DNA of 64,000 bases from Candidatus Kerfeldbacteria bacterium (GTDB taxonomy: Bacteria > Patescibacteriota > Patescibacteriia > UBA10025 > JAHIVO01). The notes beneath the pieces were generated by a model that saw only the letters and a program-made list of their open reading frames with translations, was not told the origin of the DNA and made no database searches. Where the stretch lies: assembly GCA_016214565.1 (NCBI GenBank), contig JACROE010000002.1, forward strand, positions 856,007 through 920,006, in the 5' to 3' direction. Position 1 is the first letter of the stretch. The number at the start of each line of letters is the position of its first letter. Positions 11 through 56,346 of the stretch are shown here, in pieces. The position numbers and the translations under genes were made by a program.

Positions 11-1597
11 TTGATAATAAGAGAAAATATAAATGTGAATACAGTAAAGGTATTATTTTTTTTAGTCATTATTCTGGGAGTAGCAGCGCTCTTTCGTTTT
101 TCATTTTTGTCATCAATTCCACCGGGTATCCATCCTGATGCAGCTGCTAATGGGATTGATGCCTGGGATGCATTGGTTCATAATAATCGACAAGTTTTTT
201 ATGAAGGCAATTCTGGCCGTGAGGGGCTTTTTATTAATTTCATTTCGTACTCATTTGATTGGTTTGGTCCGAGTTTAGTGGCTTATAAATTACCCGGATG
301 TTTGATCGGGCTTCTTTCGGTATTGGGGATGTATTTTCTTGGAAAAGAGATTACCCAAAAGCAATACGGGGGTTTGATTGCATCTTTTTTGATGGCAACA
401 TCTTTCTGGATGGTCATATTTGATCGTACTGGATTTCGCGCCACTCTTTCGGTCTGTTCTGTAATTTGGGTATCATTTTTTTTATTACGCGCGTTTCGTA
501 CGACTCAATGGCATGATTATGCACTTGCTGGCATTTTTTTAGGCGTTGGGTTGCATAGCTATACTTCATTCCGCTTTATGCCTTTGGTTGTGGTGGCTGC
601 GTATGGGTACGCGCTTTGGGCATGGCGAAAATTGAAAAATGCCTCGTGGCTCCATATATTTCAATTGCATAAATATTTCATTCTAACCGTCGTCATTGCA
701 TTATTTATTTTTAGTCCGTTACTTCAGTATTATCTTGTCCATCCGGAAACATTTATGGGACGCGCACATGAAGTATCGGTATTTACCCAGTCAGAAACTT
801 CGAAACATTTATGGCAAAGCACAACTTCAAATTTATTATTTTTTAATATTTCTGGCGATCCGAACTGGCGGCATAACGTGGCTCGGTTGCCGGCCCTCGA
901 TACACTCCTGGGGGCATTTTTTTTGGCAGGGGTTGCCATTGTTGGATATTCACTCATAAAAAAAAGAGAATCAGCGCCTGACACTTCTACTCAGACACGC
1001 GTGGCAAATTTTTTTATGTTATGCCTATTGGGCATGATGATTATTCCAGCGGCGATAACCTATTCTCCGGGCGGCATCCCTCATGCCTTACGAATTATAA
1101 ATACCGCGCCAGCTGTTTACCTCCTTGTGACCATTGCCGCGGTGACCATCTATGAACGAGTAAAGAATTCTGGGGTTGTTCAACGTCCGATTCTTCTTAT
1201 GAGCATTACCTTGCTGGCTACCTATCTGGTCACCTTCAATGCAGTACTCTACTTCATGCGCTGGGGAGACAATGGTCAGGTAGCGCACGAATTCAGCGAA
1301 GATTACACGCATGTCTCAGACTATATCAAGGATTTGTCGGCTACCGGGAGTACGGTTTTACTTGTGTCCGATAGCAGTGAACTGCAATTCTTTTTACTTG
1401 CAGTAAAAAATGTAATCATCACGTCAAAATTTGAAGCAGTGGAATTTGAAACGTCACGTCCTGACGTCGTTGTATTTTCGAATTTTGGACAAAATAATAT
1501 ACGTGATCGCGAAATATTGATTACTCAGGGCATGCAAATGTCGAGTGGTTTGACTTTTGGCAGAGGGGGGCACACCGTGGTTGTTTTTTCAAGGTAG
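11..1597 (+). CDS. Polytopic membrane glycosyltransferase, GT39/PMT_2 (ArnT/dolichyl-phosphate-mannose mannosyltransferase-like) family. The start is uncertain: TTG at 11, or GTG at 35.
   Basis: 528-aa ORF with many TM helices. The N-terminal loop has Asp/Glu-rich motifs (HPDAAANGIDAWD...EGNSGREGLF) typical of GT-C fold ArnT/PMT enzymes. Confidence 0.5.
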   Translation: MIIRENINVNTVKVLFFLVIILGVAALFRFSFLSSIPPGIHPDAAANGIDAWDALVHNNRQVFYEGNSGREGLFINFISYSFDWFGPSLVAYKLPGCLIGLLSVLGMYFLGKEITQKQYGGLIASFLMATSFWMVIFDRTGFRATLSVCSVIWVSFFLLRAFRTTQWHDYALAGIFLGVGLHSYTSFRFMPLVVVAAYGYALWAWRKLKNASWLHIFQLHKYFILTVVIALFIFSPLLQYYLVHPETFMGRAHEVSVFTQSETSKHLWQSTTSNLLFFNISGDPNWRHNVARLPALDTLLGAFFLAGVAIVGYSLIKKRESAPDTSTQTRVANFFMLCLLGMMIIPAAITYSPGGIPHALRIINTAPAVYLLVTIAAVTIYERVKNSGVVQRPILLMSITLLATYLVTFNAVLYFMRWGDNGQVAHEFSEDYTHVSDYIKDLSATGSTVLLVSDSSELQFFLLAVKNVIITSKFEAVEFETSRPDVVVFSNFGQNNIRDREILITQGMQMSSGLTFGRGGHTVVVFSR

Positions 1598-1978
1598 TTT
1601 GATTACCAGTTGCATTAAAAGATGCAATTAATGTATGGTTGTTGTTTTTATTTTCAAATTATCCTCCCATAGGTAACCTTGTCTGCCAAGGAGCAATCGT
1701 TAAACTTTTTGTCAAAACAAAAGCGTCCACTCGTCTTAGGGACTTAAGTAATATCCTAGCATTGATCAGGGTAGTTTGTCGGCTGATCGCTATTCATATT
1801 CTATCTTGCTTGACAGGATGCAATAAATAGTGTTTAACTCAAACGGCTGTACTAGATCGACCCCTTAGTCGACCTCCATGTCGCATATAGATATTCTGTA
1901 AAAAATGTGCTTGAAGATATACCCCCTTTCCCCCCGTCCTGCGTTGATAGTCAGCCTGCATGAAAATTTGACTATACT

Positions 1979-3727
1979 ATGATAAGTTTTATCACACGGG
2001 ATGACCAGCATTCTCGGCTCTGGAAGGAGCTGGAAAAAGAGAAGGTCATTTCACATGAAGATTACAAATCAGCAGTGAAGCGCGCCAAGCGGACCGACCG
2101 GCATATTGCCGAGGTTCTCTTTGAGGTGGATCGGGCATCTCAGGATAAGTTGCTTAAAATTTTTTCGACTTTTTATAATTTGCCAGCCGTTGATTTGCAC
2201 AATAAAGTGATTGCTCGGTATGTGTTGACACTTATTCCTAAGGAAGTGGCTGAGCAACATTCCATCGTTGTATTCAAAAAGAAGGATCAGGTGATTCATA
2301 TTGCCACGACGAATCCCGATAACGAGCAAGCTATCGATTTTATCAGGAAAAAAACCGGTCTCGAACCGTTGGTGCATTTGGCCAGTCAGTCCGCTATCCA
2401 ATCCGCTATTCGGAAATATCAGAGTGAAATAAAATCAGAGTTTGCAAAAATTGTTGAGGATAGTATCCAAGAAGCGCTCAATTCTGATGAGTCGCCGGAA
2501 AAAATTGCCCAATTCGTTCCCGTGATTAAGATGCTCGACACGGTCATTGACCAGGCCCTAACCCAGAATGCTTCCGATATTCATATTGAGCCTGGAGCTG
2601 ATGCGGTCGTTATTCGCTACCGAGTTGATGGCTTGCTGAAGAAAATCGTTGAGTTACCCCGGGAGATCTTGCCTCCACTTCTCACCAGAATCAAATTGCT
2701 GTCGAGTGTTAAAATCGATGAAAACCGTTTGCCACAAGACGGCCGTTTCACAGTTGTCCACGAGAATCGTGAAGTGGCTATCCGTACGTCCATCATTCCC
2801 ACACTGCACGGCTCTAAAGTGGTGATGCGCCTGCTTGATCGTAAACGACAGGAGTTTACTTTGCAGAAGCTCGGTCTCAATAAGCGGGATTATATGACTG
2901 TGCGTGATGAGATTACTAAGCCGCATGGTATGGTATTGGTCACCGGGCCGACTGGTTCGGGGAAAACCACCACGCTTTACGCAATTTTACAGCTGACCAA
3001 TAAGGAGGGGGTTAATATCAGCACTATTGAGGATCCGATTGAGTATGGTTTACCTGGCATCAATCAAACGCAGGTCAATCCAGCTGCTGGTTTAACGTTT
3101 GCTAATGGACTGCGCTCGCTATTGCGCCAAGACCCCAATATTCTGATGGTTGGGGAAATTCGTGATACCGATACTGCGGCAATCGCCGTGAATGCTGCTA
3201 TGACGGGTCACCTCGTTCTGACAACTCTCCATACCAATTCCGCATTCCAAGTCCTTGAGCGATTAGTCGAGATGGGCGTGTTGCCATTTTTGGCCGCCTC
3301 CGTTACACGTCTGGTAATCGGTCAGCGCTTGCTCAGGCAGATTTGCAGCCGGTGTCGGACTCGCGTAGAACCAAAGAAGAAACTACTTGAGCGTTATCAG
3401 CCGCTTTTCAAAATTAATGAAGCTTTTAATAAATTAACTAACCTCGGGCTACTGAATCCGGAAAAGCCACTGAGCCACCTCCCGTTCTATTATGGGAAGG
3501 GATGTGCTCACTGCAATCAGACTGGCTATCGCGGACGACTTGGCGTATTTGAAATTTTGAAAGTTGACGACCGACTGCATCAGGCAATTATTCGCGATCC
3601 GTCTGCCGATTCGATCAAGAAAGCCGCTCTGGACGCTGGGGCAACGACAATGGTTGAGGATGGGCTGCTCAAAGTTTTCCAAGGGCAAACCACTTTTGAG
3701 GAGTTGGTTCGCGTAACGAGAGAATAA
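1979..3727 (+). CDS. pilB: Type IV pilus assembly / type II secretion ATPase PilB (GspE family)
   Basis: 582 aa. Has a GSPII_E N-terminal domain, Walker A GPTGSGKTTT, Asp box, His box and a C-terminal tetracysteine (CSRC...CAHC). TATACT sits immediately before the ATG, suggesting a leaderless mRNA. Confidence 0.88.
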   Translation: MISFITRDDQHSRLWKELEKEKVISHEDYKSAVKRAKRTDRHIAEVLFEVDRASQDKLLKIFSTFYNLPAVDLHNKVIARYVLTLIPKEVAEQHSIVVFKKKDQVIHIATTNPDNEQAIDFIRKKTGLEPLVHLASQSAIQSAIRKYQSEIKSEFAKIVEDSIQEALNSDESPEKIAQFVPVIKMLDTVIDQALTQNASDIHIEPGADAVVIRYRVDGLLKKIVELPREILPPLLTRIKLLSSVKIDENRLPQDGRFTVVHENREVAIRTSIIPTLHGSKVVMRLLDRKRQEFTLQKLGLNKRDYMTVRDEITKPHGMVLVTGPTGSGKTTTLYAILQLTNKEGVNISTIEDPIEYGLPGINQTQVNPAAGLTFANGLRSLLRQDPNILMVGEIRDTDTAAIAVNAAMTGHLVLTTLHTNSAFQVLERLVEMGVLPFLAASVTRLVIGQRLLRQICSRCRTRVEPKKKLLERYQPLFKINEAFNKLTNLGLLNPEKPLSHLPFYYGKGCAHCNQTGYRGRLGVFEILKVDDRLHQAIIRDPSADSIKKAALDAGATTMVEDGLLKVFQGQTTFEELVRVTRE

Positions 3728-3731
3728 TAGT

Positions 3732-4937
3732 ATGATATTCAAATACACTGCACTCGACAAAAAAGATGCCTTTACCAAAGGTGTGATTGAGGTAAAGAGT
3801 GAGAAGGCGGCTCGTGCTCAATTAGAGAACGAAGGCTTTATGATTGTCAGCTTGAAGGCTGAAAAGTCAGAACGGTTTTCCGCATTTAATAATGTATTTC
3901 AGACAGTCGGGCGAGTCGATAAGATTTTTTTCACCCGCCATCTTTTCACTATTCTCGAATCAGGCATTCCGCTTGATCAAGCGATTAAAATAACCAGCGA
4001 GCAAACACCGAATAAGAAATTTAGTGAAATCCTGGACGACATACATAAGAATTTGCAGCACGGACAGACGTTTCATTTTGCGCTGTCCCAACATCCCCAG
4101 TATTTCTCAAAGTTTTTTACGAGTTTGATTCGGGTCGGGGAGTGGAGTGGAAAATTGGATGAGGTACTCTCGTATTCTCTGGAGCAGCAAGAAAATGATT
4201 TTGAATTGGTGACGAAAACCCGGTCTGCTATGATTTATCCCGCGGTGATCCTGGCCGCTCTCATTGTTATCTTTATTTTCATGATGACCTTTGTCGTCCC
4301 GAAAATTACTGAAGTGCTGACTCAGTACGAGGTTGAATTACCCCTTTTGACTAAGATCATTATTGGTCTTAGTGAATTCGTCATTCATTATGGTCTTTTT
4401 TTGATTCCGGCATTCGGTTTGTTCTGGTACATTTTTCATAAATGGAAAAGCACGCCAAAGGGTAAGCGTCAGTGGGACAGTTTGATTCTGTCGCTGCCTC
4501 GGGTAAAACAAATTGTTGCTGAATTTAATCTCGCCCGCATCAACCGGTCATTGAGTGCGCTACTGAAAAGTGGCATGCAGATAGATCAGGCGCTTGCACT
4601 TACCGCTGACGTCACCAATAACAGCCATTATGCTACCTCCCTCAAAGAGAGTATCAAATTTGTACAAAAGGGAATTGCGTTCTCTGAGACCCTGCGGGGC
4701 TACCCGCATTTGTACCCACCGATTACCGTGCAAATGATTTATGTGGGAGAGCGGACGGGAAAATTTGATCACATGTTGTCTCGATTAGCCGTTTTTTATG
4801 AGAAAGCTGTCTTGACTGCCTCAAGCAATCTCGCGTTGGTGATTGAGCCAGTGTTATTGATTACTATTGGATTAGCTGTGGCCCTGATGGCCATCGGCAT
4901 CCTGACTCCTATTTGGAATTATGCTCAAACGATCTAA
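3732..4937 (+). CDS. pilC: Type IV pilus inner-membrane platform protein PilC (GspF family)
   Basis: 401 aa with two GspF repeats and three TM segments. Lies directly downstream of pilB. Confidence 0.82.
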   Translation: MIFKYTALDKKDAFTKGVIEVKSEKAARAQLENEGFMIVSLKAEKSERFSAFNNVFQTVGRVDKIFFTRHLFTILESGIPLDQAIKITSEQTPNKKFSEILDDIHKNLQHGQTFHFALSQHPQYFSKFFTSLIRVGEWSGKLDEVLSYSLEQQENDFELVTKTRSAMIYPAVILAALIVIFIFMMTFVVPKITEVLTQYEVELPLLTKIIIGLSEFVIHYGLFLIPAFGLFWYIFHKWKSTPKGKRQWDSLILSLPRVKQIVAEFNLARINRSLSALLKSGMQIDQALALTADVTNNSHYATSLKESIKFVQKGIAFSETLRGYPHLYPPITVQMIYVGERTGKFDHMLSRLAVFYEKAVLTASSNLALVIEPVLLITIGLAVALMAIGILTPIWNYAQTI

Positions 4938-5379
4938 TATGCTATTGCCCCTGAATCAGAAGGCCTTCACGCTCATTGAGTTGCTGGTGGTGATGAGTAT
5001 CGTAGGAATCATTTCCGCGGTCGGCTTTCCCGCCTTTGCTGCGATGCAAAAGAATATTAGCCTGAAAAACTATACCAAAGAAATAGTCAGCAATTTGCGC
5101 CACGCCCACAATTTAGCGGTTGCGTCACAAGACGGTGAGAATCATGGTATTTATTTCTTGGAGAAAGAGTATGGCACCTGTGAACAAAACTGTACCATCC
5201 ATACCGCCGCGTATGACATTGCCAATGGCGTAGAAGTACTACAGGGATCGGGTGATTCAGTTATTTTTGACCGGCTAACAGGTAATACTTCTGCTCAAAC
5301 AATTGTGGTCGGATTTGACGGTGGGAAACAAAATACGATTGTTATCGACGCGTCGGGTCGTATCACGACGCTCTACTAA
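4921..5379 (+). CDS. Prepilin-type pseudopilin (GspH/FimT-like)
   Basis: N-terminal class III signal and N-methylation motif KAFTLIELLVVMSIVGII, followed by a hydrophobic helix. Confidence 0.65.
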   Translation: MLKRSNMLLPLNQKAFTLIELLVVMSIVGIISAVGFPAFAAMQKNISLKNYTKEIVSNLRHAHNLAVASQDGENHGIYFLEKEYGTCEQNCTIHTAAYDIANGVEVLQGSGDSVIFDRLTGNTSAQTIVVGFDGGKQNTIVIDASGRITTLY

Positions 5380-5380
5380 T

Positions 5381-5881
5381 ATGACCAAGCAATCAAACCA
5401 GGGGTTCAGCGTGATCGAGGTGCTGATCAGTTTGGGGATGATCACGCTGATCGTTGCCAGCATTGGCGCCGCCCTGACTGCTAATAATCGATTGGGCCAG
5501 GCAGGCAGTACCAAGGATCAAGCTTTGGCCTATGCTCGAGAAAGCATGGAGGTCGTCGCTCAACAGGCAAATTCATTCTTTGCACAATGCCCAGGCAATC
5601 TGAATTGCTGGATCGCATTTGATAGTACCCAGCCGTACTTCATTACCGACGCCAATACGTTGGTAGCGGGGACTGAGACGCTGAACACGGGCCAGATGAC
5701 GATGACTCGCAGCATTACCTTCACTGATCTGCGGCGTGACGCCAATGGTGACATAGTTGCATCGGGGGGAACGGTTGACCCAAGCTCAAAAAAGGTGACG
5801 GTCGTCGTGTCCTGGGTGCAGCACGGCCAGTCAAAGAACGTAACGTTGAGCACAATTCTTACCCGATGGAAGAATGTATAG
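5381..5881 (+). CDS. Prepilin-type minor pilin
   Basis: N-terminus NQGFSVIEVLISLGMITLIVAS (prepilin cleavage/methylation motif). The ORF-track start at 5303 overlaps the upstream gene; the ATG at 5381 follows that gene's stop. Confidence 0.6.
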   Translation: MTKQSNQGFSVIEVLISLGMITLIVASIGAALTANNRLGQAGSTKDQALAYARESMEVVAQQANSFFAQCPGNLNCWIAFDSTQPYFITDANTLVAGTETLNTGQMTMTRSITFTDLRRDANGDIVASGGTVDPSSKKVTVVVSWVQHGQSKNVTLSTILTRWKNV

Positions 5882-6374
5882 TATGAACAATGTAATGAAA
5901 AATCAGTCCGGCTATACGTTGATGGAGCTCTTGGTGTACCTGAGTATTGTCACCGTGAGCGTGCTGGTATTCACCACGTTTGTGGTTAATGTGACGAAAA
6001 ATTCAGCACGCGCAGAAATGAGGCAGGAATTGCAGGAAAATGCTCGTGTAGTGAGCAATCGTCTTATTCAGAATATCCGGCAGGCGGCCAGTGTTGATCA
6101 GGCCAATTCAATCTTTGATGTGCCCAGCGGCACCCTGGCGCTGAACCAAGCGGTAGGAGCAGACATTACATTTCGTCTGGTCAATAATACGGTGGTGTAC
6201 AACGATGGCACCACTGATTATGTCTTGACCAGCAACCGTGTGAAAGTAACTACGATGCAATTTTCTCACACAGTTGATTTGGTAAAAGTCGAATTGACTT
6301 TCGAACAGCCGAATGACTCATCCCAATCATTCACCCTGCACACGGCGGCGCTTGCCCGGCAGTCAATTTATTAA
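5874..6374 (+). CDS. Prepilin-type minor pilin
   Basis: N-terminus QSGYTLMELLVYLSIVTVSVLVF (prepilin motif). Confidence 0.6.
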   Translation: MYSMNNVMKNQSGYTLMELLVYLSIVTVSVLVFTTFVVNVTKNSARAEMRQELQENARVVSNRLIQNIRQAASVDQANSIFDVPSGTLALNQAVGADITFRLVNNTVVYNDGTTDYVLTSNRVKVTTMQFSHTVDLVKVELTFEQPNDSSQSFTLHTAALARQSIY

Positions 6375-8164
6375 TGCGTATGCACGTCATTTCCTCTAAT
6401 CAACGTGGAGCCATCGCTGTCATCTCACTGATGATCATCGCGAGCTTTGCTTTGGCCGTGATCACCACGGTCAGTCTTACTTCGATGAACGTATTTCGGG
6501 GTGCGGACGCAGGTATTGATACGGATCAAACTTTTTATGCGGCAGAGGCGGGGATTAATGAGGGATTGTATGAGCTGAATATCGATCCGTCGCCGCATGA
6601 ATTTTGCCTGGGTTTTGATGCCATTACGGTGAATTGTGACGATGCGGCGATACGCGATAAAGTGCGGGTAACCATTACCGCAAATGGATACAATCGGACC
6701 ATTACTTCAGTCGCACAGGATGCATCCGGCAAAGAACGAACGCTTCATATCGAGGTAACGACCTCGTCAATTTCAGTGCCATTGCAATATGCGGTACATT
6801 CGGGCCGGGGTGGATTCATCCTTGATAATGGCGCGCAAGTAAAGGGACCGATTTATTCTAATGGAAATATTGAGGGCTCAAATACCTCACTTATCACTGG
6901 AGAAGTGCAGGTCGCTAATGAGCCAACGCCTAGCCCGAAACAAGAGAGTCACCCTTTACCGTACTCAATCGCTCAGGATGCGGCACACCTCAGGGTGGCG
7001 CAGCAGATTGTTCCGCCAGTCACTGAACGGCTTACCAAGGTCAGCCTCTACATCCAACGATCATCGAATCAACAACTACCGGAGCTTCCTGGGACGCCGT
7101 ATCAAGTAAAAATTGTCCGTGATATTGCGGGGTCTCCGGATCTCACCCAAGTCGTTGCGCAGCAACAAATCAGTATCCCGAGAGATATTGACTGGGTACC
7201 TATTACATTCACTCCCGCACCATTATTAACCTCAGGACAACCGTATTGGATTGTTGTTGGCGCCACTGCTCAAACTAATGCAACTCGGTACATCATCTGG
7301 GATTACAATGATAATCCTGACACCTATGCTGATGGGGCAGCAAAATATTTTGATAATACGACAGGTACTTGGAATACCATTGCGGGGGATTTCTCCTTTC
7401 AGACATTACTGGGTATTGGTGATACCTTCGTTAAGGACGGGACGGTCAATGGTGATATTACCGCGCACTCGATTATTAATGTTAGCGGGACGGGCTCACG
7501 CACCTCGGGAGCGGGTGTCAATCCGCCCCGTGTCGATTACCCGATAACCGATGCTGACATTAACGACTGGAAATCAGGTGCTCAAGCCGGGGGTGAACTG
7601 AACTGTGGTCCAGGCTCAGCATGTACCAAGGATGCAAATGGGGACGTTACCATTACTGCGAATATGAGCATCGGTCCAAATGTTGTGCATGGGAATTTGA
7701 ATATTAATAGTGGAGTTTCCATAACCGTATTGGGGAATCTGTATGTTGAAAAAAATATAACGTTTAATCCGCCCGCCGGTGCAACCATGATAGTTGGCCC
7801 AGCCAATACACCAGCCGCACGGGTAGTGGTTGCTGAAGGCCAGATCAAAATTAAGAACAACGACATTCTCAGCGGTTCCGGGCATGTGCGGAGCTTTCTC
7901 CTGATGGTTTCGCTTGACGATTATCTGACTTCTGGGGAGATCGCTATCAGCCCTTCGAATAATAGTAGTTCAGTGCTTTTCTTTGCGCCGAAAGGTTTTG
8001 TTGAAATGGCCAATGGCACCTTCCTCAATAGTGCCACTGCGTATATTATCCACCTTGAGAATGCCATAATCGAGTACAATGAGAACCTGTCCGGTTTCAC
8101 CGTGCCTGATCCCACACCAGCCCCGATTGTGATTATCCCCGGACAAGGCTGGGAAGAGCAGTAA
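6374..8164 (+). CDS. Large PilX_N-domain minor pilin / putative pilus tip protein
   Basis: 596 aa. The N-terminus QRGAIAVISLMIIASFALAVITTVSL...FYAAEAGINEGLYEL matches the PilX N-terminal domain, followed by a long beta-rich Gly/Asn/Thr-rich region. Last gene of the pilin run. Confidence 0.5.
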   Translation: MRMHVISSNQRGAIAVISLMIIASFALAVITTVSLTSMNVFRGADAGIDTDQTFYAAEAGINEGLYELNIDPSPHEFCLGFDAITVNCDDAAIRDKVRVTITANGYNRTITSVAQDASGKERTLHIEVTTSSISVPLQYAVHSGRGGFILDNGAQVKGPIYSNGNIEGSNTSLITGEVQVANEPTPSPKQESHPLPYSIAQDAAHLRVAQQIVPPVTERLTKVSLYIQRSSNQQLPELPGTPYQVKIVRDIAGSPDLTQVVAQQQISIPRDIDWVPITFTPAPLLTSGQPYWIVVGATAQTNATRYIIWDYNDNPDTYADGAAKYFDNTTGTWNTIAGDFSFQTLLGIGDTFVKDGTVNGDITAHSIINVSGTGSRTSGAGVNPPRVDYPITDADINDWKSGAQAGGELNCGPGSACTKDANGDVTITANMSIGPNVVHGNLNINSGVSITVLGNLYVEKNITFNPPAGATMIVGPANTPAARVVVAEGQIKIKNNDILSGSGHVRSFLLMVSLDDYLTSGEIAISPSNNSSSVLFFAPKGFVEMANGTFLNSATAYIIHLENAIIEYNENLSGFTVPDPTPAPIVIIPGQGWEEQ

Positions 8165-8276
8165 TCTATTTCCTACATTAGTGTCGTCGTGTGCCTATAC
8201 CTGTGGTGGTACATTTTTTTGAGTTGCAAAAAGCGCCCCTGTTTACAATTTCGTTAGGCAGGAGCAAAATATATAT

Positions 8277-9581
8277 ATGAAAACAGTTGGCATTATTTTT
8301 GGTGCAGCGGTTATAGCAGTCATTGTTATTTGTGTCCAAGCACCGCGGGCAGCTGGGGAGATCGGGGATTGCCCCGCGGGCTACGAATTTCAGCCCTCCA
8401 GCGGGGTAGGCTGTGTCCAGATCAACTGCAACGATGTCGAGAACGGCCACTGGTCATACACCAGCGCCTGTATTTGCGGTTCAGCAGGCAGTATTTATGA
8501 GGATCCAACTGATCCGAACAAAGGGTGTTATTATGACAGGGACTATGCGGCTTGTCCTGGATGCCTCTATGCCTGCGTCCATACTGATGAAGCGTGTCCG
8601 GACGAGACGCCTCCGACTACCAATACAAACGCCAGTTCAAACGTAAATGCGTCCGTAAATACTAACGCCGCCTCAACTAATAGCGCTAGCGGTAATACCA
8701 ATCAGTTGGTAAATCAGAATAGTAATACATCGCTGACTACGGCTGGTGTGGGCAGTACTGCGAGTTGTACCGAGGAATGCAATAAATACCTGAGGGGCAA
8801 AAGGAATGCATCAGTTGTGTCCGCAACTGGTGAACCTCCGGACTGCGCTTGTCAGATCGATGTTCAAGCGGGCGGGGCGGTAACGCAAACTATTAAGATA
8901 GAGGGACCAATAGAAACAACGTATACGTTTGATCCATCGTCCGGCGCGCTGCTATCCCGGGTGACAGTGAATCGCCGGGATGAAATCGAAAAGATCCGCA
9001 AGCGTCTTGGCTATCGTTATACCGAGGCTGAGATTGACGCACTGCTTGCGCCAGAGAAAATTGACGCGTGGTTCCAGAGCCAGACGCAAAACATTAGGAC
9101 AACAACTAATTTGCTCAATCCGCAGTTCTGGTGGCAGCACGTGGTGGCAATACTTGATCACGGGTTTGATGGCAATAGCGCTGATTTTGTAGACACGTAC
9201 CAATTTGGCAGGTGCGGCGATTCAATGCAGTGGCTCGAGCGTGATTTGTCGGGCCAATTACGCTTGGGCGATGACGCAGACGAACCTGGTCAAAAACACG
9301 AAGCGATGCTTTCAATCACTGGAGAAAAATATGGCAACATGTTGAACCACACTTCATTGCTTATTCGGCCCGCCGGCATTACCAATGCGGAGTGGGAGGA
9401 CATCGTCAGAGAACTGAAGCAATTATCTGGCGGTACCGAGGATAATCCTGGCATTCAGCCAGGCGGTTTACAGAATATTGATCCGCGTTTGCTGGATGCA
9501 AAAGTTTTAGACCCATATAAGAAACAAATAACCACCGTGCGTGAATTCATTAAAGGCTGGTCATATATCCGTATTAGTTAG
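8277..9581 (+). CDS. Secreted cysteine-rich protein with low-complexity N/S/T linker (hypothetical)
   Basis: Signal peptide (MKTVGIIFGAAVIAVIVICVQA), about 16 Cys in the first 170 aa, then an N/S/T-rich low-complexity stretch and a globular C-terminal domain. Confidence 0.4.
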   Translation: MKTVGIIFGAAVIAVIVICVQAPRAAGEIGDCPAGYEFQPSSGVGCVQINCNDVENGHWSYTSACICGSAGSIYEDPTDPNKGCYYDRDYAACPGCLYACVHTDEACPDETPPTTNTNASSNVNASVNTNAASTNSASGNTNQLVNQNSNTSLTTAGVGSTASCTEECNKYLRGKRNASVVSATGEPPDCACQIDVQAGGAVTQTIKIEGPIETTYTFDPSSGALLSRVTVNRRDEIEKIRKRLGYRYTEAEIDALLAPEKIDAWFQSQTQNIRTTTNLLNPQFWWQHVVAILDHGFDGNSADFVDTYQFGRCGDSMQWLERDLSGQLRLGDDADEPGQKHEAMLSITGEKYGNMLNHTSLLIRPAGITNAEWEDIVRELKQLSGGTEDNPGIQPGGLQNIDPRLLDAKVLDPYKKQITTVREFIKGWSYIRIS

Positions 9582-9584
9582 TCT

Positions 9585-10079
9585 ATGAAAAAGATTCGTA
9601 TTATCACCATCATTGTGGGTTGTCTGGTCATTGTCCTCGCAGCAGGAGCAATTGTGCTGCGCCATGTCCCGGCGGTGACGTATGCGGTTGAGGATGTGGA
9701 CACTACTGCTCACTGGGGATCGATTTCTGGATCACTGAGTTACCCGAGCGATTTTATCCCAGCCTTAGGCGTTTGCGCTCAAACGAAGAATGCGACCGAA
9801 CAATATTGCACCTACAAAATGTTAGAGGATGATAAATATACTAATGGTGTTGGCTATTCTATTGCGGTTCCGCCGGGTGCGTATACCGTATTCAGCCATG
9901 AAGTGACGGAGTTGAACGCGTTGACTGGTTATCAGGACGGTGATTACCAAGCTTTTTACTCAAAGTTTGTTACCTGCGGCGGTACCAGTGATTGCACCTC
10001 TCACACGCCGGTTGTTGTAACGGTCGAGCGCAACCAAGACCTCGAAAATATTGACCCGATTGATTGGTATAATATTTAA
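9585..10079 (+). CDS. Signal-anchored exported protein (hypothetical)
   Basis: 164 aa with an N-terminal TM/signal anchor and several Cys residues. Separated from the upstream gene by 3 nt. Confidence 0.35.
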   Translation: MKKIRIITIIVGCLVIVLAAGAIVLRHVPAVTYAVEDVDTTAHWGSISGSLSYPSDFIPALGVCAQTKNATEQYCTYKMLEDDKYTNGVGYSIAVPPGAYTVFSHEVTELNALTGYQDGDYQAFYSKFVTCGGTSDCTSHTPVVVTVERNQDLENIDPIDWYNI

Positions 10080-10092
10080 TTAAGAGACACAT

Positions 10093-10308
10093 ATGGACCA
10101 AGTGTCACAACCCGTGCCATTACCGTATTCAAAAAGTATATTTAAGCAGTGGTGGCTGTGGTTAATTATTGTGGCTATTCTTATTGCAGTGTTGTTTATT
10201 CCGTATATCTCGGTGCCGGCGAGTTGCATGCCATGCCCGGACACCGCGACGAATTGTCCGGCGTGCCCGACGTACCAGCAAAATTTAATTGAGTATTGGT
10301 TTACGTAG
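10093..10308 (+). CDS. Small membrane protein with CxxC-rich tail (hypothetical)
   Basis: 71 aa: one TM helix followed by CMPCPDTATNCPACP. Confidence 0.3.
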   Translation: MDQVSQPVPLPYSKSIFKQWWLWLIIVAILIAVLFIPYISVPASCMPCPDTATNCPACPTYQQNLIEYWFT

Positions 10309-10349
10309 GCCAATAGAGCAACCACTCAAGGGAAAGTATCATCACCAGT

Positions 10350-10526
10350 ATGGGCCAAAAATTTGTTATTTATTTCTGCCTGTCTGTCGGGGCCGCTATT
10401 GGCGGATATATCCCAGCGCTGTGGCATGACAGCATTTTTTCGCCGTGGTCAGTGATTCTTTCGGCGGTGGGTGGCATAGTGGGGTTATACGTCGGTATTA
10501 AAATCAATCAGGCGATCGGCGGGTAG
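10350..10526 (+). CDS. Small two-TM membrane protein (58 aa, not in the ORF track)
   Basis: ATG at 10350 to TAG at 10524-10526. Gly-rich hydrophobic sequence reminiscent of GlsB/YeaQ/YmgE-type small membrane proteins. Confidence 0.25.
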   Translation: MGQKFVIYFCLSVGAAIGGYIPALWHDSIFSPWSVILSAVGGIVGLYVGIKINQAIGG

Positions 10527-10532
10527 TCATGA

Positions 10533-10561
10533 TTGACTTTTAGCTTCACATCGCGTATAAT
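10533..10561 (+). promoter_or_regulatory. Consensus sigma70 promoter (TTGACT-17-TATAAT) upstream of the ATP-grasp/ABC-F/RND genes
   Basis: TTGACT at 10533-10538, a 17-nt spacer, TATAAT at 10556-10561. An 80-nt leader with a GC hairpin plus T-run (about 10600-10615) precedes the ATG at 10645. Confidence 0.5.
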
Positions 10562-10644
10562 AGGTCTAATCGTAAAAAACCACTGGGAAAGGTCTGCCAT
10601 TACGGCCGATCTTTTTTGAATGCTTTTTCGACAATGTACCACGT

Positions 10645-11652
10645 ATGATTCATATACCGCGCAGCGACGTTAATAGTGTTAACGCGCTCCATATTGCCGC
10701 ACGGAAACTACATATCGAAGTTGAAACAATCGACTCCGATGCAGGATTGCATCTCTTTAAACATCAGGGCAAGCGTTTTTTTGTGCGCCAACATATTCCT
10801 GACCTGAATTCATACGTGGCCTCGCGGGTAATTAATAATAAATACTTAGCAAAAAAAATTCTTCTTAAAAACAATATCTCCGTACCCAGCGGCGTGACTT
10901 TTTCAAATCTTCATAAAGTTCTGTTGAGCTTGAGAGAGGGTAGTATTAAATATCCACTGGTGGTCAAACCAATTGAAGGTTCAATGGGCGAGGCAGTCAC
11001 GGTAGACATCCGCAGTGAGGATTGGCTTGGTGTGGCAATCCAAGAAGTGTATAAATATAATCGTCGGCGTTGGGGCAGGCCGGGATCATTTTTAGTTGAA
11101 CAGTATATACCTGGTCATGACTATCGATTTTTAGTTCTCGATGGCAGAGTACTGACTGCATTGATGCGCAAACCAGCCTATGTAATCGGCGATGGGGTAC
11201 GCACCATTCAGCAACTGATTGTTGAATATAATAATCAGCCGGGGGTGGCCAAGGATCAACCGCTTTGCCCGATTGTCATTGATTATGAATTGCATCGGAA
11301 CTTGGTGAGTCAGCAGCTGACACTCGAGACCGTTTTGCCACACGCAAAGCAAATATTTTTGCGGCGGAATGCGAATGTGAGTACGGGCGGACGCTCGTTT
11401 GAGTGCTTTGATAAAGCTGCGCCGGAATATCTGAAATTAGCTGCCCGGATCGGTGAAATATTCCAGTTGCGGTTCTTTGCGGTTGATCTGATCGCCCGAG
11501 ACATTAGCCTGTATGAAAAGTTTGCGGTGATTGAAATTAATGATACCCCGGGCTTTGATATCCACGAAGCCCCGTACCGCGGCAAGCCGTTTCCGGTGGC
11601 AGAACATATCGTGCGGGCGATGTTTCGGGATACAACAGGTGGTAGGGCGTGA
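10645..11652 (+). CDS. ATP-grasp ligase (RimK / cyanophycin-synthetase N-domain-like)
   Basis: 335 aa with the ATP-grasp signature: LVVKPIEGSMGEAVTV..., EQYIPGHDYRFLVLDG, and a C-terminal AVIEINDTPG Mg/ATP-binding loop. Confidence 0.6.
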   Translation: MIHIPRSDVNSVNALHIAARKLHIEVETIDSDAGLHLFKHQGKRFFVRQHIPDLNSYVASRVINNKYLAKKILLKNNISVPSGVTFSNLHKVLLSLREGSIKYPLVVKPIEGSMGEAVTVDIRSEDWLGVAIQEVYKYNRRRWGRPGSFLVEQYIPGHDYRFLVLDGRVLTALMRKPAYVIGDGVRTIQQLIVEYNNQPGVAKDQPLCPIVIDYELHRNLVSQQLTLETVLPHAKQIFLRRNANVSTGGRSFECFDKAAPEYLKLAARIGEIFQLRFFAVDLIARDISLYEKFAVIEINDTPGFDIHEAPYRGKPFPVAEHIVRAMFRDTTGGRA

Positions 11653-11685
11653 CAAAGCCCCCTTTTTCTGCTACGATGTCGTTTC

Positions 11686-13155
11686 ATGACAAATGATTCG
11701 GTAGTATTACGATTTTCAGATGTTAGTTACGCCTACGACCGCGGTCACAAAAAACTGCTGGACGAGGCGTCTTTTTCGGTTCGTGCGGGCAGTCGGATAA
11801 CCCTGATGGGCCAGAATGGCGCGGGGAAAAGCACGATTTTTAAATTAATTACTGGTGAGGTCAAGCCCAATGACGGTCAGATATTTCGTACCCCGGCTGA
11901 TGCGACGGTGGGGATTGCGCGTCAGACCATGCCACGAGAAGCATTGCCATTGACCGTGCGGGAATATTTTGCCACGGCGTTTAAGGAGATTCAATATAAT
12001 CTGGATAAGTTGATTGCAAATGTTTTTGAAGTCGTTAATCTCGATATTCCAATTACTAAAACTGTAAAAGAATTATCCGGTGGCGAACAAGCACGGTTGC
12101 TCTTAGCGCATGCCTTGATTCAGGAGCCTGACATACTCTTGCTCGATGAGCCAACTAACAATTTAGATCAGCAGGGGATTGATCATCTCACCACGTTTCT
12201 TATCATGTATACCAAGACGTGCCTGGTGATATCTCATGACGCCGATTTTTTAAATGCGTTTAGTGATGGTGTTTTATACCTGGACATCCATACTCAGAAG
12301 GTAGAACAGTATACCGGGAATTATAATGATGTGGTTGAGGAAATCAGTCAGCGAATTGAGCGGGAAAATTTATTGAATGCTCGCATGCAGCGGCAAATAA
12401 AAGAGAAGCGCGCGCAGGCAGAAGTGTTTGCCCATAAGGGCGGTAAACTTCGGTTTGTGGCTAAGCGCATGCGTGAAGCAGCGGAAACTGCGGAGGAAAA
12501 TATTGTGAGTGTGCGCAAAGAAGACAAAACGATCCGCCCCTTTACGATTCCCGTACAAGACTTTGATATTCATTTCCACGGAAAAATTGTGGAGATGTCC
12601 GGTGTGTCATCCATGCAGAATCACAAGATCGTTGAAAAAAAGATTGACTTGACCATCCGCAAAAACATGCACGTGGTGATTGCCGGTCCAAATGGTATAG
12701 GTAAGAGCACCTTGTTGGCGCAGCTGGTATCGGGTACCGCGCCTCATGCCAAGGTTTCCCCAGAAGTAGTTGTGGGGTATTACCAGCAAGACTTTGGCAA
12801 TATGGATATGGATCAAATCGCCTTTGATGCATTGAAGAGTGCCATGGCGAAGCAAGACGATCACCGCTTGCGCTCTACCGCCGCAGGTTTTCTTTTGGAT
12901 GGCGGAATATTATCACAACCAATCCGTGCCTTGTCAGAAGGGCAAAAGGGGTTACTGTCATACTGCCGCTTGGTGCTCCAGCAGCCAGGACTTTTGGTTT
13001 TAGATGAACCAACTAACCATATAAATTTTCGTCATTTACCGGTGCTGGCAAAAGCGCTGGACGAATATCAGGGCGCCTTGATCATGGTTTCGCATATCCC
13101 AGACTTTGTCGCACAGATACGGGTGGATACGGTGATTGATTTGGAAAAGGTGTAG
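11686..13155 (+). CDS. ABC-F family ATPase (tandem ABC domains, no TM domain)
   Basis: Two Walker A motifs (GQNGAGKST, GPNGIGKST), two ABC signatures (LSGGEQARL, LSEGQKGLL) and an inter-domain linker. Confidence 0.8.
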   Translation: MTNDSVVLRFSDVSYAYDRGHKKLLDEASFSVRAGSRITLMGQNGAGKSTIFKLITGEVKPNDGQIFRTPADATVGIARQTMPREALPLTVREYFATAFKEIQYNLDKLIANVFEVVNLDIPITKTVKELSGGEQARLLLAHALIQEPDILLLDEPTNNLDQQGIDHLTTFLIMYTKTCLVISHDADFLNAFSDGVLYLDIHTQKVEQYTGNYNDVVEEISQRIERENLLNARMQRQIKEKRAQAEVFAHKGGKLRFVAKRMREAAETAEENIVSVRKEDKTIRPFTIPVQDFDIHFHGKIVEMSGVSSMQNHKIVEKKIDLTIRKNMHVVIAGPNGIGKSTLLAQLVSGTAPHAKVSPEVVVGYYQQDFGNMDMDQIAFDALKSAMAKQDDHRLRSTAAGFLLDGGILSQPIRALSEGQKGLLSYCRLVLQQPGLLVLDEPTNHINFRHLPVLAKALDEYQGALIMVSHIPDFVAQIRVDTVIDLEKV

Positions 13156-13299: not shown

Positions 13300-16200
13300 A
13301 TGAATAACGAGCTGCATCGTACTGACGAAACCATCAAGCATCCCTATGATTGGAATGCAAAATTGGTTCGTTATTTCCTTAATAATTCACGTCTTGTTTG
13401 GCTTATCATCGCTGCCATTATAATTGGTGGCCTTTTTGCCTTGCTGAATTTTCAGCGTCAGGGATTTCCACAGGTTTCCCCGAAAGTTGCACTCGTACAA
13501 ACTATTTATCCTGGAGCCACCGCTGACGAAATGGAACGTCAAGTAACTGGATTGATTGAGGCGGCTGTTAAAGATGTGAAGGGGCTCAAAGAAACCTCTT
13601 CAACGTCCGCTAATAGTTTCTCAAACGTGGTTGTTACGTTGGATGAATCCGTTAATCTTGATACTGCTGTTCAAGATATTCAATCAAAAGTACAGTCCAT
13701 CCAGGCCGATCTTCCGGCCGATGCGGAGCCGCCGAAAGTGCAAACATTTGCCACCTCAGGTCCTGCCTTTATTTTTGGCGTGACCCATGAAAGCGGAGAT
13801 ATGGATACTATTCGGCATTCGGCTGATGATTTGATCCAGGGGTTATCGGACGTTGAGGGAGTAAAGACGGCTTCACTGGCCAATGAAGCGCCAGAGCGGA
13901 TTGTGATTACGTTTGATCCCGCCAAGATGGCGGTTCAGGGAGCGCAATTACAGATTCTGCAGTTAGCACTCCAGGGCGCAAATGTTAATTTTCCAGCCGG
14001 TACACTCGACCTGGAAGGGAAAACGCAATCGGTTATTTCTGTCGGCGCCTTTACGACGCTTGATGAAATCTCAAATTTGATTGTCGGCGTCAATCCGCGC
14101 ACACGCCAGCCTATCCGCGTCCAGGACATTGCCGAAGTACGGCGTGGGTTTGCCTCCGATGTGAATATTGATCGGTTTGGTTCGATTGACAATGGACAAT
14201 TAGTGAGTCATCCGGGCGTACTAGTCAACGTCGAAGTGACGGCCGAGGCTGATGTGATCAAAACTAAAAAAGCAATTGACGAGCACCTCGCGGTCATGGA
14301 GACGGACGGAGAGTTAGATGGGGTAACGGTGGCAGAGCTGAGCAATGTCGCCCGCGACACACAGGATCAGATCGGTGAAATCGTGGATGGCGCGATTGGC
14401 ACAGAAAAAAACGTGTATATGCTCGGTGGTATCCAGCTGCTCTTTATAGCCATGTTACTTTTTGTTAATTGGCGAGCAGCTATTGTTGCCGCTCTGGCGA
14501 TACCGTTGTCAATGTTATTTACTTTTGCATCGCTTGCAATTACCGGTACCGAGCTGAACACCATTGTGTTGTTTTCGTTAATTCTCGTACTCGGTTTGAT
14601 CGTTGACCCGGCCATCATCATGATCGAGTCGATTCAGCGGTATCGCGATTTGAAATACGGTGCGGTTGACGCTGTCTTAGAATCGGGTCGCCGCTATGGC
14701 GCCTCGCTCTTCATGGCAGTGTTGGCTTCGATGATTGTATTTGCCCCATTTGGAGTTGTATCTGGGATATTCGGCGAAATCATTAAATACATACCATTGA
14801 CCGTACTTCCGGCATTGATTGCTTCCTATATTATTCCGATTGCGATTTTGCCGATGTTATCGAAATGGTTGATGAAATCCCGATCCACAAAAGCCGGTGA
14901 AACCGCGATGAGCGGTGAAGATGAGGGGCTCTGGCGAATTGCTCGCTGGTTTATGTCAGTCAGTGGTACACTCCTCGCAAAACGTTGGCGCCAAGTAGTT
15001 ACCCTAGTGGTGGCGTTGCTCTTGGTGGCTGGTTCGTTGGCGATTGTGGGTATGGGGAAAGTACAAATTGTACAATTCTCAAAAGCTAAGGACAATCCGT
15101 ATTTGACGATTGACGCTCGATTTCCTAAGGGTTTAACCTTCGCCGATCGTTCAGCTGTTGGCGCAGAGCTTGAGCAATTGCTACTTAATGAATCCGGCGT
15201 GGCTAAATATTTTTACTATCAGCAGAGCCGCGATGGTTTGTATTTATTTGCCGAGCTAAAAATAAAAGCCGATCGGGACGAGACACAGACCAGCAAGGAA
15301 ATCGTGAGGCGGCTTCGAGCGTCAGCCAAAGACATTACTCATCTAGATGATATTATCATCAATGAACTTGGCACTGGTACTCCTGAGCCGGATTATCAGA
15401 TTCAAGTGCAGCTCAATGATAATGATCCGGCCGTACTCGAAACCGCCGCCAAAGAGGTTGGAGATTATCTCCGCTCATTGGAGCATATTACGCGCGTTGA
15501 CGATGGTTTTACTGGCAAAGATGAATCAGAAGTACGAGTCATCCTTGATCGGATGCGGGTGCAGGTAGCCGGCTTATCCAGTTATGAAATTGGTCAGCAG
15601 TTGAAAGCAGTTATCGGCGAAACCACCGTGACAAAATATACCGGCGAGGGTGGTTCAGCTGACGTCATATTAAAGAACGGTGCGTTACCAGCAGACCTGG
15701 ATGCGATTCGAAATCTGCCGCTCGTGAGTCAGGCTGGTCAAGTCGTTCGCGTCTCGGACGTGGCCACGGTGGAGGAGAGTTCAACCGCGGGCGTGATTCA
15801 GCGCTTTGACGGATTGCGGTATGTCAGTGTACGCGCTCGAATCGATGACAGTAAGAATTTAGTTGCAGTACAGCAAAAGTTCAATGAGTATTTGACCGAT
15901 GAGAAGTTAGATCAATTGGGCATTGATAGCCGAGATTCACGCGGTGAGTTTGATGACATTGCTAAATCATTTCAGGAATTAGGCATGGCGCTGGCGGCTG
16001 CCATTTTGATGACTTATATCTTCTTGGCGCTGCAATTCAAATCATTTACCCAGCCATTGGTCATGCTTATCACCGTGCCACTGTCTCTGACCGGCGTATT
16101 CCCTGCGCTCCTATTGACTGGTTCTGATCTCGGATTTCTCGAATTACTTGGCGTCACGATTCTCGTTGGTATTGTGGTCAGCGTGGGCATTTTCCTGATG

Positions 16201-56344: not shown

Positions 56345-56346
56345 TT

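Follow-up and report, generated by a model that had tools for sequence, protein, structure and literature searches.

A ComZ-like candidate tip pilin in a type IV filament operon of Candidatus Kerfeldbacteria and an adjoining, probably independent cassette of secreted cysteine-rich proteins

Dependence on other cells characterizes the Patescibacteria, also called the candidate phyla radiation (CPR), whose best-supported organelles of contact are pili. Large PilX/ComZ tip pilins with solenoid or lectin-like domains have already been described in Thermus, cyanobacteria, and Saccharibacteria. ComZ of Thermus thermophilus carries a GspK-like stem and a large beta-solenoid in one chain, and its authors matched the solenoid to the ice-binding-protein fold (PDB 6QVI; PMC6561018). 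In the cyanobacterial PilX/HpsA-type system, a PilX-class protein accompanies an H/I/J/K-like set of pilins, and its bulky solenoid has been proposed as a substitute for the PilY1 tip plug (bioRxiv 10.64898/2026.02.12.705559). In Saccharibacteria, PilX1 and PilX2 are the largest minor pilins of their loci and bear lectin-like accessory domains, a C-terminal jelly-roll and a C-terminal beta-propeller, respectively; PilX2 is needed for efficient host binding (PMC11623550 / PMC12206443). Here we describe a stretch of 64,000 nucleotides (nt), hereafter the window, from Candidatus Kerfeldbacteria (GenBank assembly GCA_016214565.1, contig JACROE010000002.1, positions 856,007 to 920,006), in which a type IV filament (pil) operon ending in a 596-amino-acid (aa) protein of this kind is followed by a cassette of genes for proteins of 434, 164, and 71 aa. 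The 596-, 434-, and 164-aa products are identical to the NCBI proteins HZC01_04175, HZC01_04180, and HZC01_04185, which are encoded on a 1.1-Mb contig of a metagenome-assembled genome (MAG) of Candidatus Kerfeldbacteria (Patescibacteria/CPR). This origin bears out the CPR setting assumed in an initial annotation made from the sequence alone, and every open reading frame (ORF) named there was found with the position and length it had given.

We conclude that the locus probably comprises two independent units that lie head to tail on one strand: the pil operon (1979-8164) and a cassette (8277-10308) that happens to adjoin it. Four products are central to this conclusion.

6374..8164, + strand: 596-aa predicted tip pilin of the PilX/GspK class, without Glu5 (AlphaFold2 model, ComZ match in Foldseek, PilX_N and GspK matches in its family, operon position)
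8277..9581, + strand: 434-aa predicted secreted multidomain protein, first gene of the cassette (85 full-length homologues, signal-peptide-like N-terminus)
9585..10079, + strand: 164-aa beta-rich protein, predicted to be exported or membrane anchored (gene directly 3' of the 434 gene in relatives)
10093..10308, + strand: 71-aa predicted single-pass membrane protein (transmembrane segment at aa 23-41) with two invariant CxxC(P) motifs in its C-terminal tail

The linkage of the cassette to pil genes was assessed in one genome per species (GTDB), which gave 25 loci with a member of the 434 family, by tBLASTn of all window proteins, all-against-all clustering of ORFs, and a hidden Markov model (HMM) of the 164 family. 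Four metagenome contigs (L029-L032) that carry the closest 434 relatives, at 71% identity, were added, giving about 27 distinct loci in all. The 164 gene lies directly 3' of the 434 gene in 22/25 genome loci and in L029-L032; among the remaining three, one locus is incomplete and two (L012 and L015) truly lack a 164 gene. The 71-aa gene follows the 164 gene in the closer relatives (L001, L003, L005, and L029-L032), and no other gene is conserved around the 434/164 pair in the 25 loci. No homologue of PilB, PilC, a pilin, or the 596-aa protein was found within 10 kb of the cassette in the 25 genome loci and four metagenome contigs, and the closest 434 relatives lie 3' of a PF1765-like gene or of RF-1. 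When linkage was examined from the other side, no 434 homologue was found 3' of a 596-family gene in about nine informative loci; the genes in that position differ each time (a flavodoxin gene, an opposite-strand ABC transporter gene, PilM, and others). Since linkage is absent in either direction, the adjacency of pil operon and cassette is specific to the Kerfeldbacteria genome. The initial annotation had tied the 434-aa protein and the small proteins to the pilus, a claim that was to be given up if other genomes showed no linkage to pil genes. Across the 25 loci, the four contigs, and the roughly nine 596-family loci, none was seen, and the claim is not supported.

Two observations concern the cassette-bearing contigs themselves. 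L012 and L015 are high-GC contigs in which the genes 3' of the 434 gene (~10000-12000) encode a PAP2-like membrane protein and a 153-aa protein, which bears on whether the partner of the 434-aa protein is essential. Several contigs (L010, L012, L016, L017, L021, L024, and L025) sit in MAGs labelled Gammaproteobacteria, Pirellulales, or Bdellovibrionales; these contigs probably were mis-binned.

The same data bear on the reading of the initial annotation, which unites the 596- and 434-aa proteins and the two small proteins in a single adhesin or effector set, associated with the pilus and expressed and working together with the pil operon. All of the genes lie on one strand, the 112 bp between the units (8164 to 8277) hold no terminator-like hairpin, and all four products are predicted to be exported or membrane anchored. 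The shared strand and the uninterrupted gap also weigh against our division of the locus, and both units may be cotranscribed in the Kerfeldbacteria genome. A promoter and terminator scan of 1500-10800 returned 19 and 10 sites against 15.1 and 8.6 expected, respectively; this is chance level, so the scan cannot decide whether the two units are cotranscribed and lends a joint set no support. In L031, a ComEC (Competence/DUF4131) gene lies directly 3' of 434/164/71 (2566-6354), which would fit such a set, but this arrangement occurs in one lineage only and probably is coincidental. Against a joint set stands the synteny, with no pil gene within 10 kb of the cassette in any locus and with the cassette never 3' of a 596-family gene. 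It largely refutes a single set, which we consider very improbable. What stands of the earlier proposal is the 596-aa tip pilin as a member of the pil operon; the 434-, 164-, and 71-aa proteins do not belong with it.

The 596-aa gene is preceded by genes for two assembly proteins and three small pilins.

1979..3727, + strand: PilB/GspE-type assembly ATPase, 582 aa, with an MshEN N-domain (Pfam T2SSE, 5.3e-124; MshEN, 1.1e-16)
3732..4937, + strand: PilC/GspF-type platform protein, 401 aa (Pfam T2SSF, 2.2e-55, two repeats; NCBIfam GspF and PilC matches)
4921..5379, + strand: minor pilin 1, 152 aa, GspH/ComGD-like, Glu5 present (N_methyl, 1.3e-8; motif QKA/FTLIELLVV, the slash separating positions -1 and +1)
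5381..5881, + strand: minor pilin 2, 166 aa, GspI/PilV/ComGE-like, Glu5 present (motif QG/FSVIEVLIS)
5874..6374, + strand: minor pilin 3, 166 aa, GspJ/ComGF-like, Glu5 present (N_methyl, 6.5e-6; motif SG/YTLMELLVY)

These assignments confirm the pilB, pilC, and three prepilin-type minor pilin genes of the initial annotation. The NCBIfam type IV-A PilB model scored 530 bits against the ATPase, which is under its equivalog cutoff. Each of the small pilins has the features of a class III signal, namely, a short basic leader, Gly or Ala at -1, a hydrophobic alpha1, and Glu at +5. Their NCBIfam matches were ComGD (2e-11) and GspH (2e-7) for minor pilin 1, both under cutoff; ComGE (2.9e-5, subthreshold), with weak PilV and XpsI matches and a Pfam N_methyl match of only 0.061, for minor pilin 2; and ComGF (7e-6, under cutoff) for minor pilin 3. 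Taken in sequence, these best subthreshold matches (ComGD/GspH, ComGE/PilV/GspI, and ComGF) follow the H-I-J order of core minor pilins. Minor pilin 2 probably starts at ATG 5381, 2 nt past the stop of minor pilin 1, rather than at the listed TTG 5303.

The remainder of the window adds nothing to this set of pil genes. Thirty further ORFs, analyzed by Pfam scan, are housekeeping or unrelated (tRNA synthetases, gyrase B, the Pol III alpha subunit, ribosomal proteins, RF-1, FtsW, an AcrB-type transporter, and others). None of the 30 encodes PilM, PilN, PilO, PilT, or PilD, with small ORFs scanned in part, and a motif scan requiring Gly at -1 found no further prepilin candidates elsewhere in the window. 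Within that coverage, the absence of other pil genes reported in the initial annotation is supported. Directly 5' of pilB, at 11-1597, lies a gene for a PMT_2-type (ArnT/dolichyl-phosphate-mannose-like) membrane glycosyltransferase. It is not kept 5' of the operon in the related loci inspected, and it could be relevant to pilin glycosylation.

The position of the 596-aa gene is conserved. The order PilB, PilC, pilin, pilin, pilin, and ~600-aa protein recurs in about ten other Patescibacteria loci (L026, L028, L033, L035/36, L037-L039, and L041-L043, and in part L044), and in every related locus with enough upstream DNA, the ~600-aa gene is the last of the operon. A distant member of the 596 family lies among PilD, several pilins, PilM, and PilO (L034). 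The conserved six-gene order marks the 596-aa protein as a genuine part of a type IV filament system. In the window itself, the start of the 596-aa ORF overlaps the stop of the minor pilin 3 gene by one base (TAATG).

Inspection of the N-terminus of the 596-aa protein (..NQRG/AIAVISLMII..) revealed Gly at -1, conserved in the family (..RG/AIAVISL..), and Ile or Val rather than Glu at +5; the hydropathy maximum of the protein is at aa 12-30. Gly at -1 without Glu5 is the hallmark of the subunit that caps a minor-pilin complex (GspK, PilX, and ComGG), and in these two features the 596-aa protein is as expected of a capping subunit. The family set comprised 17 members (25-64% identity; 564-641 aa), and the metagenome scan for the family was run with an alignment of six closer sequences. 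An AlphaFold2 model built on the family alignment, with a mean predicted local distance difference test score (pLDDT) of 84.5 and a predicted template modeling score of 0.71, is composed of the following parts.

6401..6775, + strand: pilin stem, with the alpha1 helix at aa 10-70 and an antiparallel sheet at aa 75-134 (DSSP of the model, hydropathy)
6956..7498, + strand: choice-of-anchor-R beta-sandwich inserted in the solenoid, ~aa 195-375, optional in the family (NCBIfam choice_anch_R, model)
7619..8083, + strand: C-terminal beta-solenoid, ~aa 416-570 (regular short strands in the model)

A second, shorter solenoid segment occupies aa 136-194. Short C-terminal strands that follow the solenoid in the model and a conserved C-terminal Trp are compatible with a ComZ-like insertion of the solenoid between the penultimate and last strands of the pilin sheet. 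The sandwich was recognized independently of the model by NCBIfam choice_anch_R, which gave 26.2 bits for the window protein and matched 14/17 family members (best, 4.2e-13). Weak Bactofilin, DUF5649, and DUF7305 matches also occur within the family. The model thus confirms the beta-rich extension described in the initial annotation. No Pfam match to a PilY1/PilC beta-propeller was found in the protein or its family, and the model shows a solenoid and a sandwich, not a propeller.

Foldseek analysis of the model against the PDB returned four matches at E <= 0.001. Viral structural proteins account for three: a capsid chain of PBCV-1 and two baseplate chains of phage phi812, the latter two aligned locally over ~190 columns. 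The remaining match, ComZ of T. thermophilus (6qvi_B; E, 7.6e-4; probability, 0.98), aligned over the whole length and is the only pilus protein among the PDB matches. The top ranks for the whole model are held by phage baseplate and central-fiber proteins and other beta-sandwich domains (local, ~170-190 columns), and ice-binding-protein solenoids appear among the lower matches. The resemblance to ComZ includes the joining of a GspK-like stem and a large ice-binding-protein-like solenoid in one chain; it extends to a minor-pilin locus, the lack of a canonical prepilin motif, and a length of ~550-600 aa. Unlike ComZ, the 596-aa protein has the choice-of-anchor-R sandwich within its solenoid, and its organism, as a CPR bacterium, presumably lacks an outer membrane and a secretin. 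Together, the model and the position of the gene support the description of the product as an oversized tip-type pilin of the pilus operon.

Other described systems share parts of this design. As in the cyanobacterial PilX/HpsA type, a PilX-class protein with a bulky solenoid stands in an H/I/J/K-like set, and the small pilins of the window give weak HpsC matches; the cyanobacterial system belongs to another phylum, the operon described here also encodes PilB and PilC, and the two are likened by description, not by sequence. The likeness to PilX1 and PilX2 of Saccharibacteria is one of architecture: both sides are CPR, and in both, the largest minor pilin of the locus lacks a PilD signal and bears lectin-like accessory domains. 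The two differ in that a solenoid with an inserted sandwich takes the place of the C-terminal jelly-roll or propeller and in that Kerfeldbacteria are not Saccharimonadia. With GspK, the tip pseudopilin of type II secretion, the 596-aa protein shares Gly at -1, the lack of Glu5, and its place as the last and largest of four in an H-I-J-K order. The insertion of GspK is alpha-helical, in a protein of ~330 aa, whereas that of the 596-aa protein is all beta and twice as large. The 596-aa protein thus joins a described group of large tip pilins, with the choice-of-anchor-R insertion as its particular feature, and extends the design of a solenoid-bearing PilX tip plug or adhesin to Kerfeldbacteria-type CPR.

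Several points weigh against this reading. The 596-aa protein itself gave no match to Pfam PilX_N at E <= 0.1 and reached no GspK score. When a profile of the 596 family was compared with PDB sequences, ComZ was matched at an E value of 3.3 over the alpha1 helix only, so that there is no similarity to ComZ at the sequence level. The location at the tip and the binding of a ligand are proposed by analogy with ComZ, cyanobacterial PilX, and Saccharibacteria PilX1/PilX2. Within the family, PF14341 (PilX_N) is matched by 7/17 members (best, 1.3e-6) and NCBIfam T2SS_GspK by 2/17 (best, 6.9e-5). The PilX_N label of the initial annotation therefore was right in substance, through these relatives, although the window protein gives no direct Pfam match. 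Membership in the operon, the predicted fold, and the resemblance to ComZ in that fold were established by the analyses above.

Comparison of the operons revealed that the parts of the 596-aa protein do not diverge in step. Variants of ~400-480 aa lack aa ~200-352, which corresponds to the sandwich (L040-L043 and L045; P0093, P0104, and P0105), and the sandwich thus is an optional insertion. Relative to the L028 operon (P0089), PilB is 78%, PilC 79%, and alpha1 76% identical, and the solenoid and sandwich are 34-39% identical (whole 596 homologue, 38%). Relative to L026 (P0087), the pattern is reversed, with 62% identity for PilB, 63% for alpha1, 71-83% for the solenoid, and 61% for the sandwich (whole protein, 62%). 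At the level of sequence comparison, this suggests that the exposed module diverges or recombines independently of the stem, through exchange or diversifying selection. Such decoupled, mosaic divergence would be expected of a specificity-determining binding module and argues for a variable ligand, such as a host envelope, over DNA. It is also the pattern expected of a determinant of host specificity and may offer a useful handle for predicting host range from metagenomes.

We propose that 1979-8164 is a type IV filament assembly-and-priming operon that encodes PilB, PilC, and four minor pilins like GspH, GspI, GspJ, and GspK. The four minor pilins would form a priming complex on PilC, in which the stem of the 596-aa pilin docks on the other three and nucleates the pilus, and PilB would power the addition of a major pilin encoded elsewhere. 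The 596-aa subunit, lacking Glu5, would then be found at the tip, where its solenoid may plug the filament and where solenoid and sandwich, exposed at the surface, may bind a ligand. By analogy with the systems above, that ligand is most likely a surface glycan or an envelope component of a host cell and less likely DNA.

The cassette begins with the gene for the 434-aa protein, whose domains are as follows.

8358..8600, + strand: mobile 10-Cys module, aa 28-108 (exactly 10 Cys in 29/31 members)
8607..8759, + strand: N/S/T-rich low-complexity linker, aa 111-161 (sequence; pLDDT, 26-32)
8760..8972, + strand: 4-Cys beta-hairpin domain with a YD/RHS-like repeat, aa 162-232 (4 Cys in 30/31 members; strands at 178-232 in the model)
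8973..9578, + strand: conserved alpha/beta C-terminal domain, aa 233-434 (single Cys in 31/31 members; pLDDT, ~85)

The 85 full-length homologues (43-71% identity) all derive from Patescibacteria, all are annotated as hypothetical, and none has a Pfam domain. No useful match to Pfam or NCBIfam was obtained for the protein and 31 aligned relatives, and a sequence-profile search of the PDB found none. Matches to Listeria p60/Iap in three members (E, ~0.09) were discarded as a probable effect of the T/N-rich linker. In line with the initial annotation, which gave about 16 Cys, the count is exactly 16, the linker is rich in N/S/T, and the C-terminal domain is structured. Residues 1-27 resemble a signal peptide in which an A-x-A/G site directly precedes a conserved DC; export of the cassette proteins is predicted from hydropathy, conservation of the cleavage site, and Cys content.

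A search of 1.84 billion representative proteins with a profile of the 434 family showed that its parts have different histories. Besides the family itself, more than 100 other representatives (P0113-P0250) match the profile, most of them only in its 10-Cys-module part, located at their N- or C-terminus. Ten such proteins were scanned, and four have known domains (two with MopE-like repeats, one with a PAAR motif, and one with a ConA-like domain). The module (~80 aa) has no Pfam model, and in P0082 and P0083 it is swapped for another domain. The linker varies from 7 to 128 aa across the family. In the 4-Cys domain, RHS_repeat matches are weak and subthreshold (11/31 members; best, 0.003), with one or two YD-like hairpins. 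The C-terminal domain, by comparison, is confined to orthologues among these representatives, occurs in a single form, and shows the strongest conservation within the protein (45-70% identity). When HMMs of the three domains were run against the window and the flanking regions of related loci, no additional copies came up.

Further inspection of the 31 sequences revealed Cys counts of 10, 4, and 1 for the three domains in essentially all members. The lone Cys of the C-terminal domain, Cys313 (nt 9213-9215), lies within an invariant GRCGDSM, and His358 (9348-9350) and Asp412 (9510-9512) also are invariant, as are Gln287, H288, D294, H295, and D315. In the secondary structure of the model, Cys313 forms the N-terminus of a helix (313-327), His358 lies in a strand (356-363), and Asp412 ends a strand (409-412). 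Foldseek analysis of the model against the PDB and BFVD found nothing at E <= 0.001 (best, 0.06 in the PDB and 0.016 in BFVD). The only PDB matches that span the whole C-terminal domain are to LapG (4fgo and 4u65_E; ~200 columns; TM score, 0.39-0.42; E, 0.23-0.33), and these are not significant.

From the unpaired invariant Cys in an otherwise fully disulfide-paired protein, its secondary-structure context in the model, and the whole-domain LapG alignments, we tentatively propose that the 434-aa protein is a secreted thiol enzyme of papain- or transglutaminase-like type with a Cys-His-Asp site, a reading that we rate as a real prospect somewhat short of an even chance. Like LapG, a transglutaminase-like cysteine protease of the BTLCP group (PDB 4FGO and 4U65), the protein would be exported, its Cys, His, and Asp follow in the same order, and the Cys is at a helix start with the His and Asp on strands. 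Unlike LapG, it shows no Pfam BTLCP or Transglut_core signal in the 31 members, and its His and Asp lie farther apart (54 residues, including a helical insert). Speaking against the proposal, neither Pfam, NCBIfam, and PDB searches nor Foldseek gave a significant sequence or structure match to a papain- or transglutaminase-like fold, and the arrangement of Cys313, His358, and Asp412 is predicted from their order and the secondary structure of the model. Two other assignments were discarded. A covalent adhesin with a thioester domain (TED), suggested by Gln287 together with Cys313, has the Cys and Gln in the reverse order, and no TED appeared among the Foldseek matches; a sortase-like His/Cys/Arg site would call for a beta-barrel, and the predicted fold is alpha/beta with the Cys on a helix.

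The gene for the 164-aa protein follows after a gap of 3 nt. In the protein, a hydrophobic N-terminal segment (anchor or signal) precedes a beta-rich domain of ~125 aa in which 4 Cys, His140, and Asp160-Trp161 are invariant; Pfam and PDB profile searches returned noise only and placed it in no known family. The tail of the 71-aa protein (CxPCP...CxxCP; invariant C45, C48, C55, and C58) probably faces outward, and the protein could be a thiol-disulfide or metal-binding accessory for its disulfide-rich neighbors. The initial annotation's description of two small exported or membrane proteins with Cys-rich motifs is upheld by the four invariant ectodomain Cys of the one and the two CxxC(P) motifs of the other.

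As a mechanism for the cassette, the 434-aa protein would be exported via its Sec signal peptide and would form seven predicted disulfides in the 10-Cys module and the 4-Cys hairpin domain. Cys313 would then serve as the nucleophile with His358 and Asp412 in the C-terminal domain, and the 10-Cys module might target the enzyme. The 164-aa protein may be its partner, as an inhibitor, immunity protein, or anchor, and the 71-aa CxxC membrane protein an accessory. Taken as a whole, 434/164/71 could constitute a previously unrecognized secretory enzyme system, confined to some Patescibacteria, in which a disulfide-stabilized thiol enzyme, a dedicated exported inhibitor or immunity protein, and a membrane CxxC accessory act in remodeling or attack of the envelope during episymbiosis; in this full form, we regard the idea as speculative and on balance doubtful.

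Alternatives were considered for both the 596-aa and the 434-aa proteins. The exposed module of the 596-aa protein could receive DNA in natural transformation, the role proposed for ComZ, instead of adhering to a host: ComZ, its closest solved pilus protein, binds DNA (PMC6561018), the small pilins score best against the competence pilins ComGD/E/F, and CPR bacteria are thought to rely on DNA uptake. The rapid divergence and recombination of the module relative to the stem and machinery, however, would be unexpected for a ligand as invariant as DNA. The protein also lacks sequence similarity to ComZ, the DNA-binding lysines included, carries an additional choice-of-anchor-R sandwich, and as a whole model has phage baseplate and fiber proteins at the top of its Foldseek list. 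In Saccharibacteria, moreover, large PilX proteins mediate host binding, and the T4P-2 type IV pilus (PilX2) does not contribute to competence (PMC11623550). A DNA receptor thus seems unlikely to us, and binding of a host surface component remains our preferred function for the exposed module.

For the cassette, the 434/164 pair could be a polymorphic-toxin-like effector and its immunity protein, in which a secreted papain-like amidase or peptidase attacks the envelope of a host or competitor and the producer is protected by the exported 164-aa protein. Pairs of this general kind exist among secreted cell-wall amidases, whose small immunity or inhibitor proteins are likewise exported (for example, Tse1/Tsi1 and LytE/IseA). 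The tight coupling of the genes (a 3-nt gap and adjacency in 22/25 loci), the weak RHS/YD-repeat matches in 11/31 members, the occurrence of the 10-Cys module in a PAAR-motif protein, and nonsignificant Foldseek matches to Rhs and contact-dependent inhibition toxin-immunity complexes (7zhm_C, probability 0.96; 5hkq_A; 8ssm_A) would fit such a pair. Rhs/YD polymorphic toxins, however, have many YD repeats that build a shell, a conserved cleavage motif, and a variable C-terminal toxin domain, whereas the 434-aa protein has one or two YD-like hairpins, neither an Rhs shell nor a DPxGL-type cleavage motif, and a C-terminal domain that is its most conserved part and exists in a single form, swapping being seen in the N-terminal module instead. 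The cassette has no linked delivery system, and L012 and L015 keep the 434 gene without the partner, which would be lethal if the 164-aa protein were an essential immunity protein. A toxin-immunity pair therefore appears to us an improbable account of the cassette. The 434-aa protein could also be a noncatalytic surface or extracellular binding protein, such as an adhesin or lectin, with its invariant Cys, His, and Asp in a metal-binding or structural role. A signal peptide, a disulfide-rich module, a flexible linker, and a globular domain are typical of surface proteins; H288, D294, H295, D315, and H358 could form a metal site; and the Cys module co-occurs with MopE-like metal-binding motifs and a ConA-like domain. 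The initial annotation had called for a check for lectin or adhesin folds, and Foldseek found none in the PDB and BFVD. The pattern of conservation points to an enzyme: seven invariant residues in a row that enclose a single unpaired Cys, placed where a helix begins, are more typical of an active site, and the globular domain is under very strong purifying selection, in contrast to the fast-evolving tip module of the 596-aa protein. We consider a purely binding role not very likely and retain the secreted thiol enzyme as our working proposal.

With no significant match by sequence or by Foldseek, 434/164/71 stands as a conserved family that lacks annotation, and it is not an accessory set of the pilus. 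Treating it apart from the pil operon keeps a mistaken "pilus effector" label from spreading. Judged by its sequence conservation, the 434 family is a conserved, unannotated secreted family with a likely active-site cysteine, which makes it a target for biochemistry.

Other genes of the window were noted in passing. On the 3' side of the cassette lie a gene for a 58-aa GlsB/YeaQ-like small membrane protein with a weak Transgly_assoc match (10350-10526) and one for an ATP-grasp protein of the ATPgrasp_ST/RimK-like type (10645-11652), and neither is kept beside the cassette elsewhere. A full-length AcrB/AcrD/AcrF transporter of the resistance-nodulation-division type (13300-16488; ACR_tran, 6e-151) is encoded in this CPR genome, which presumably belongs to an organism without an outer membrane; no adjacent gene for a membrane-fusion or TolC-like protein was noticed. 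Two tandem DUF3048 paralogues of 360 and 396 aa are encoded at 55262-57537.

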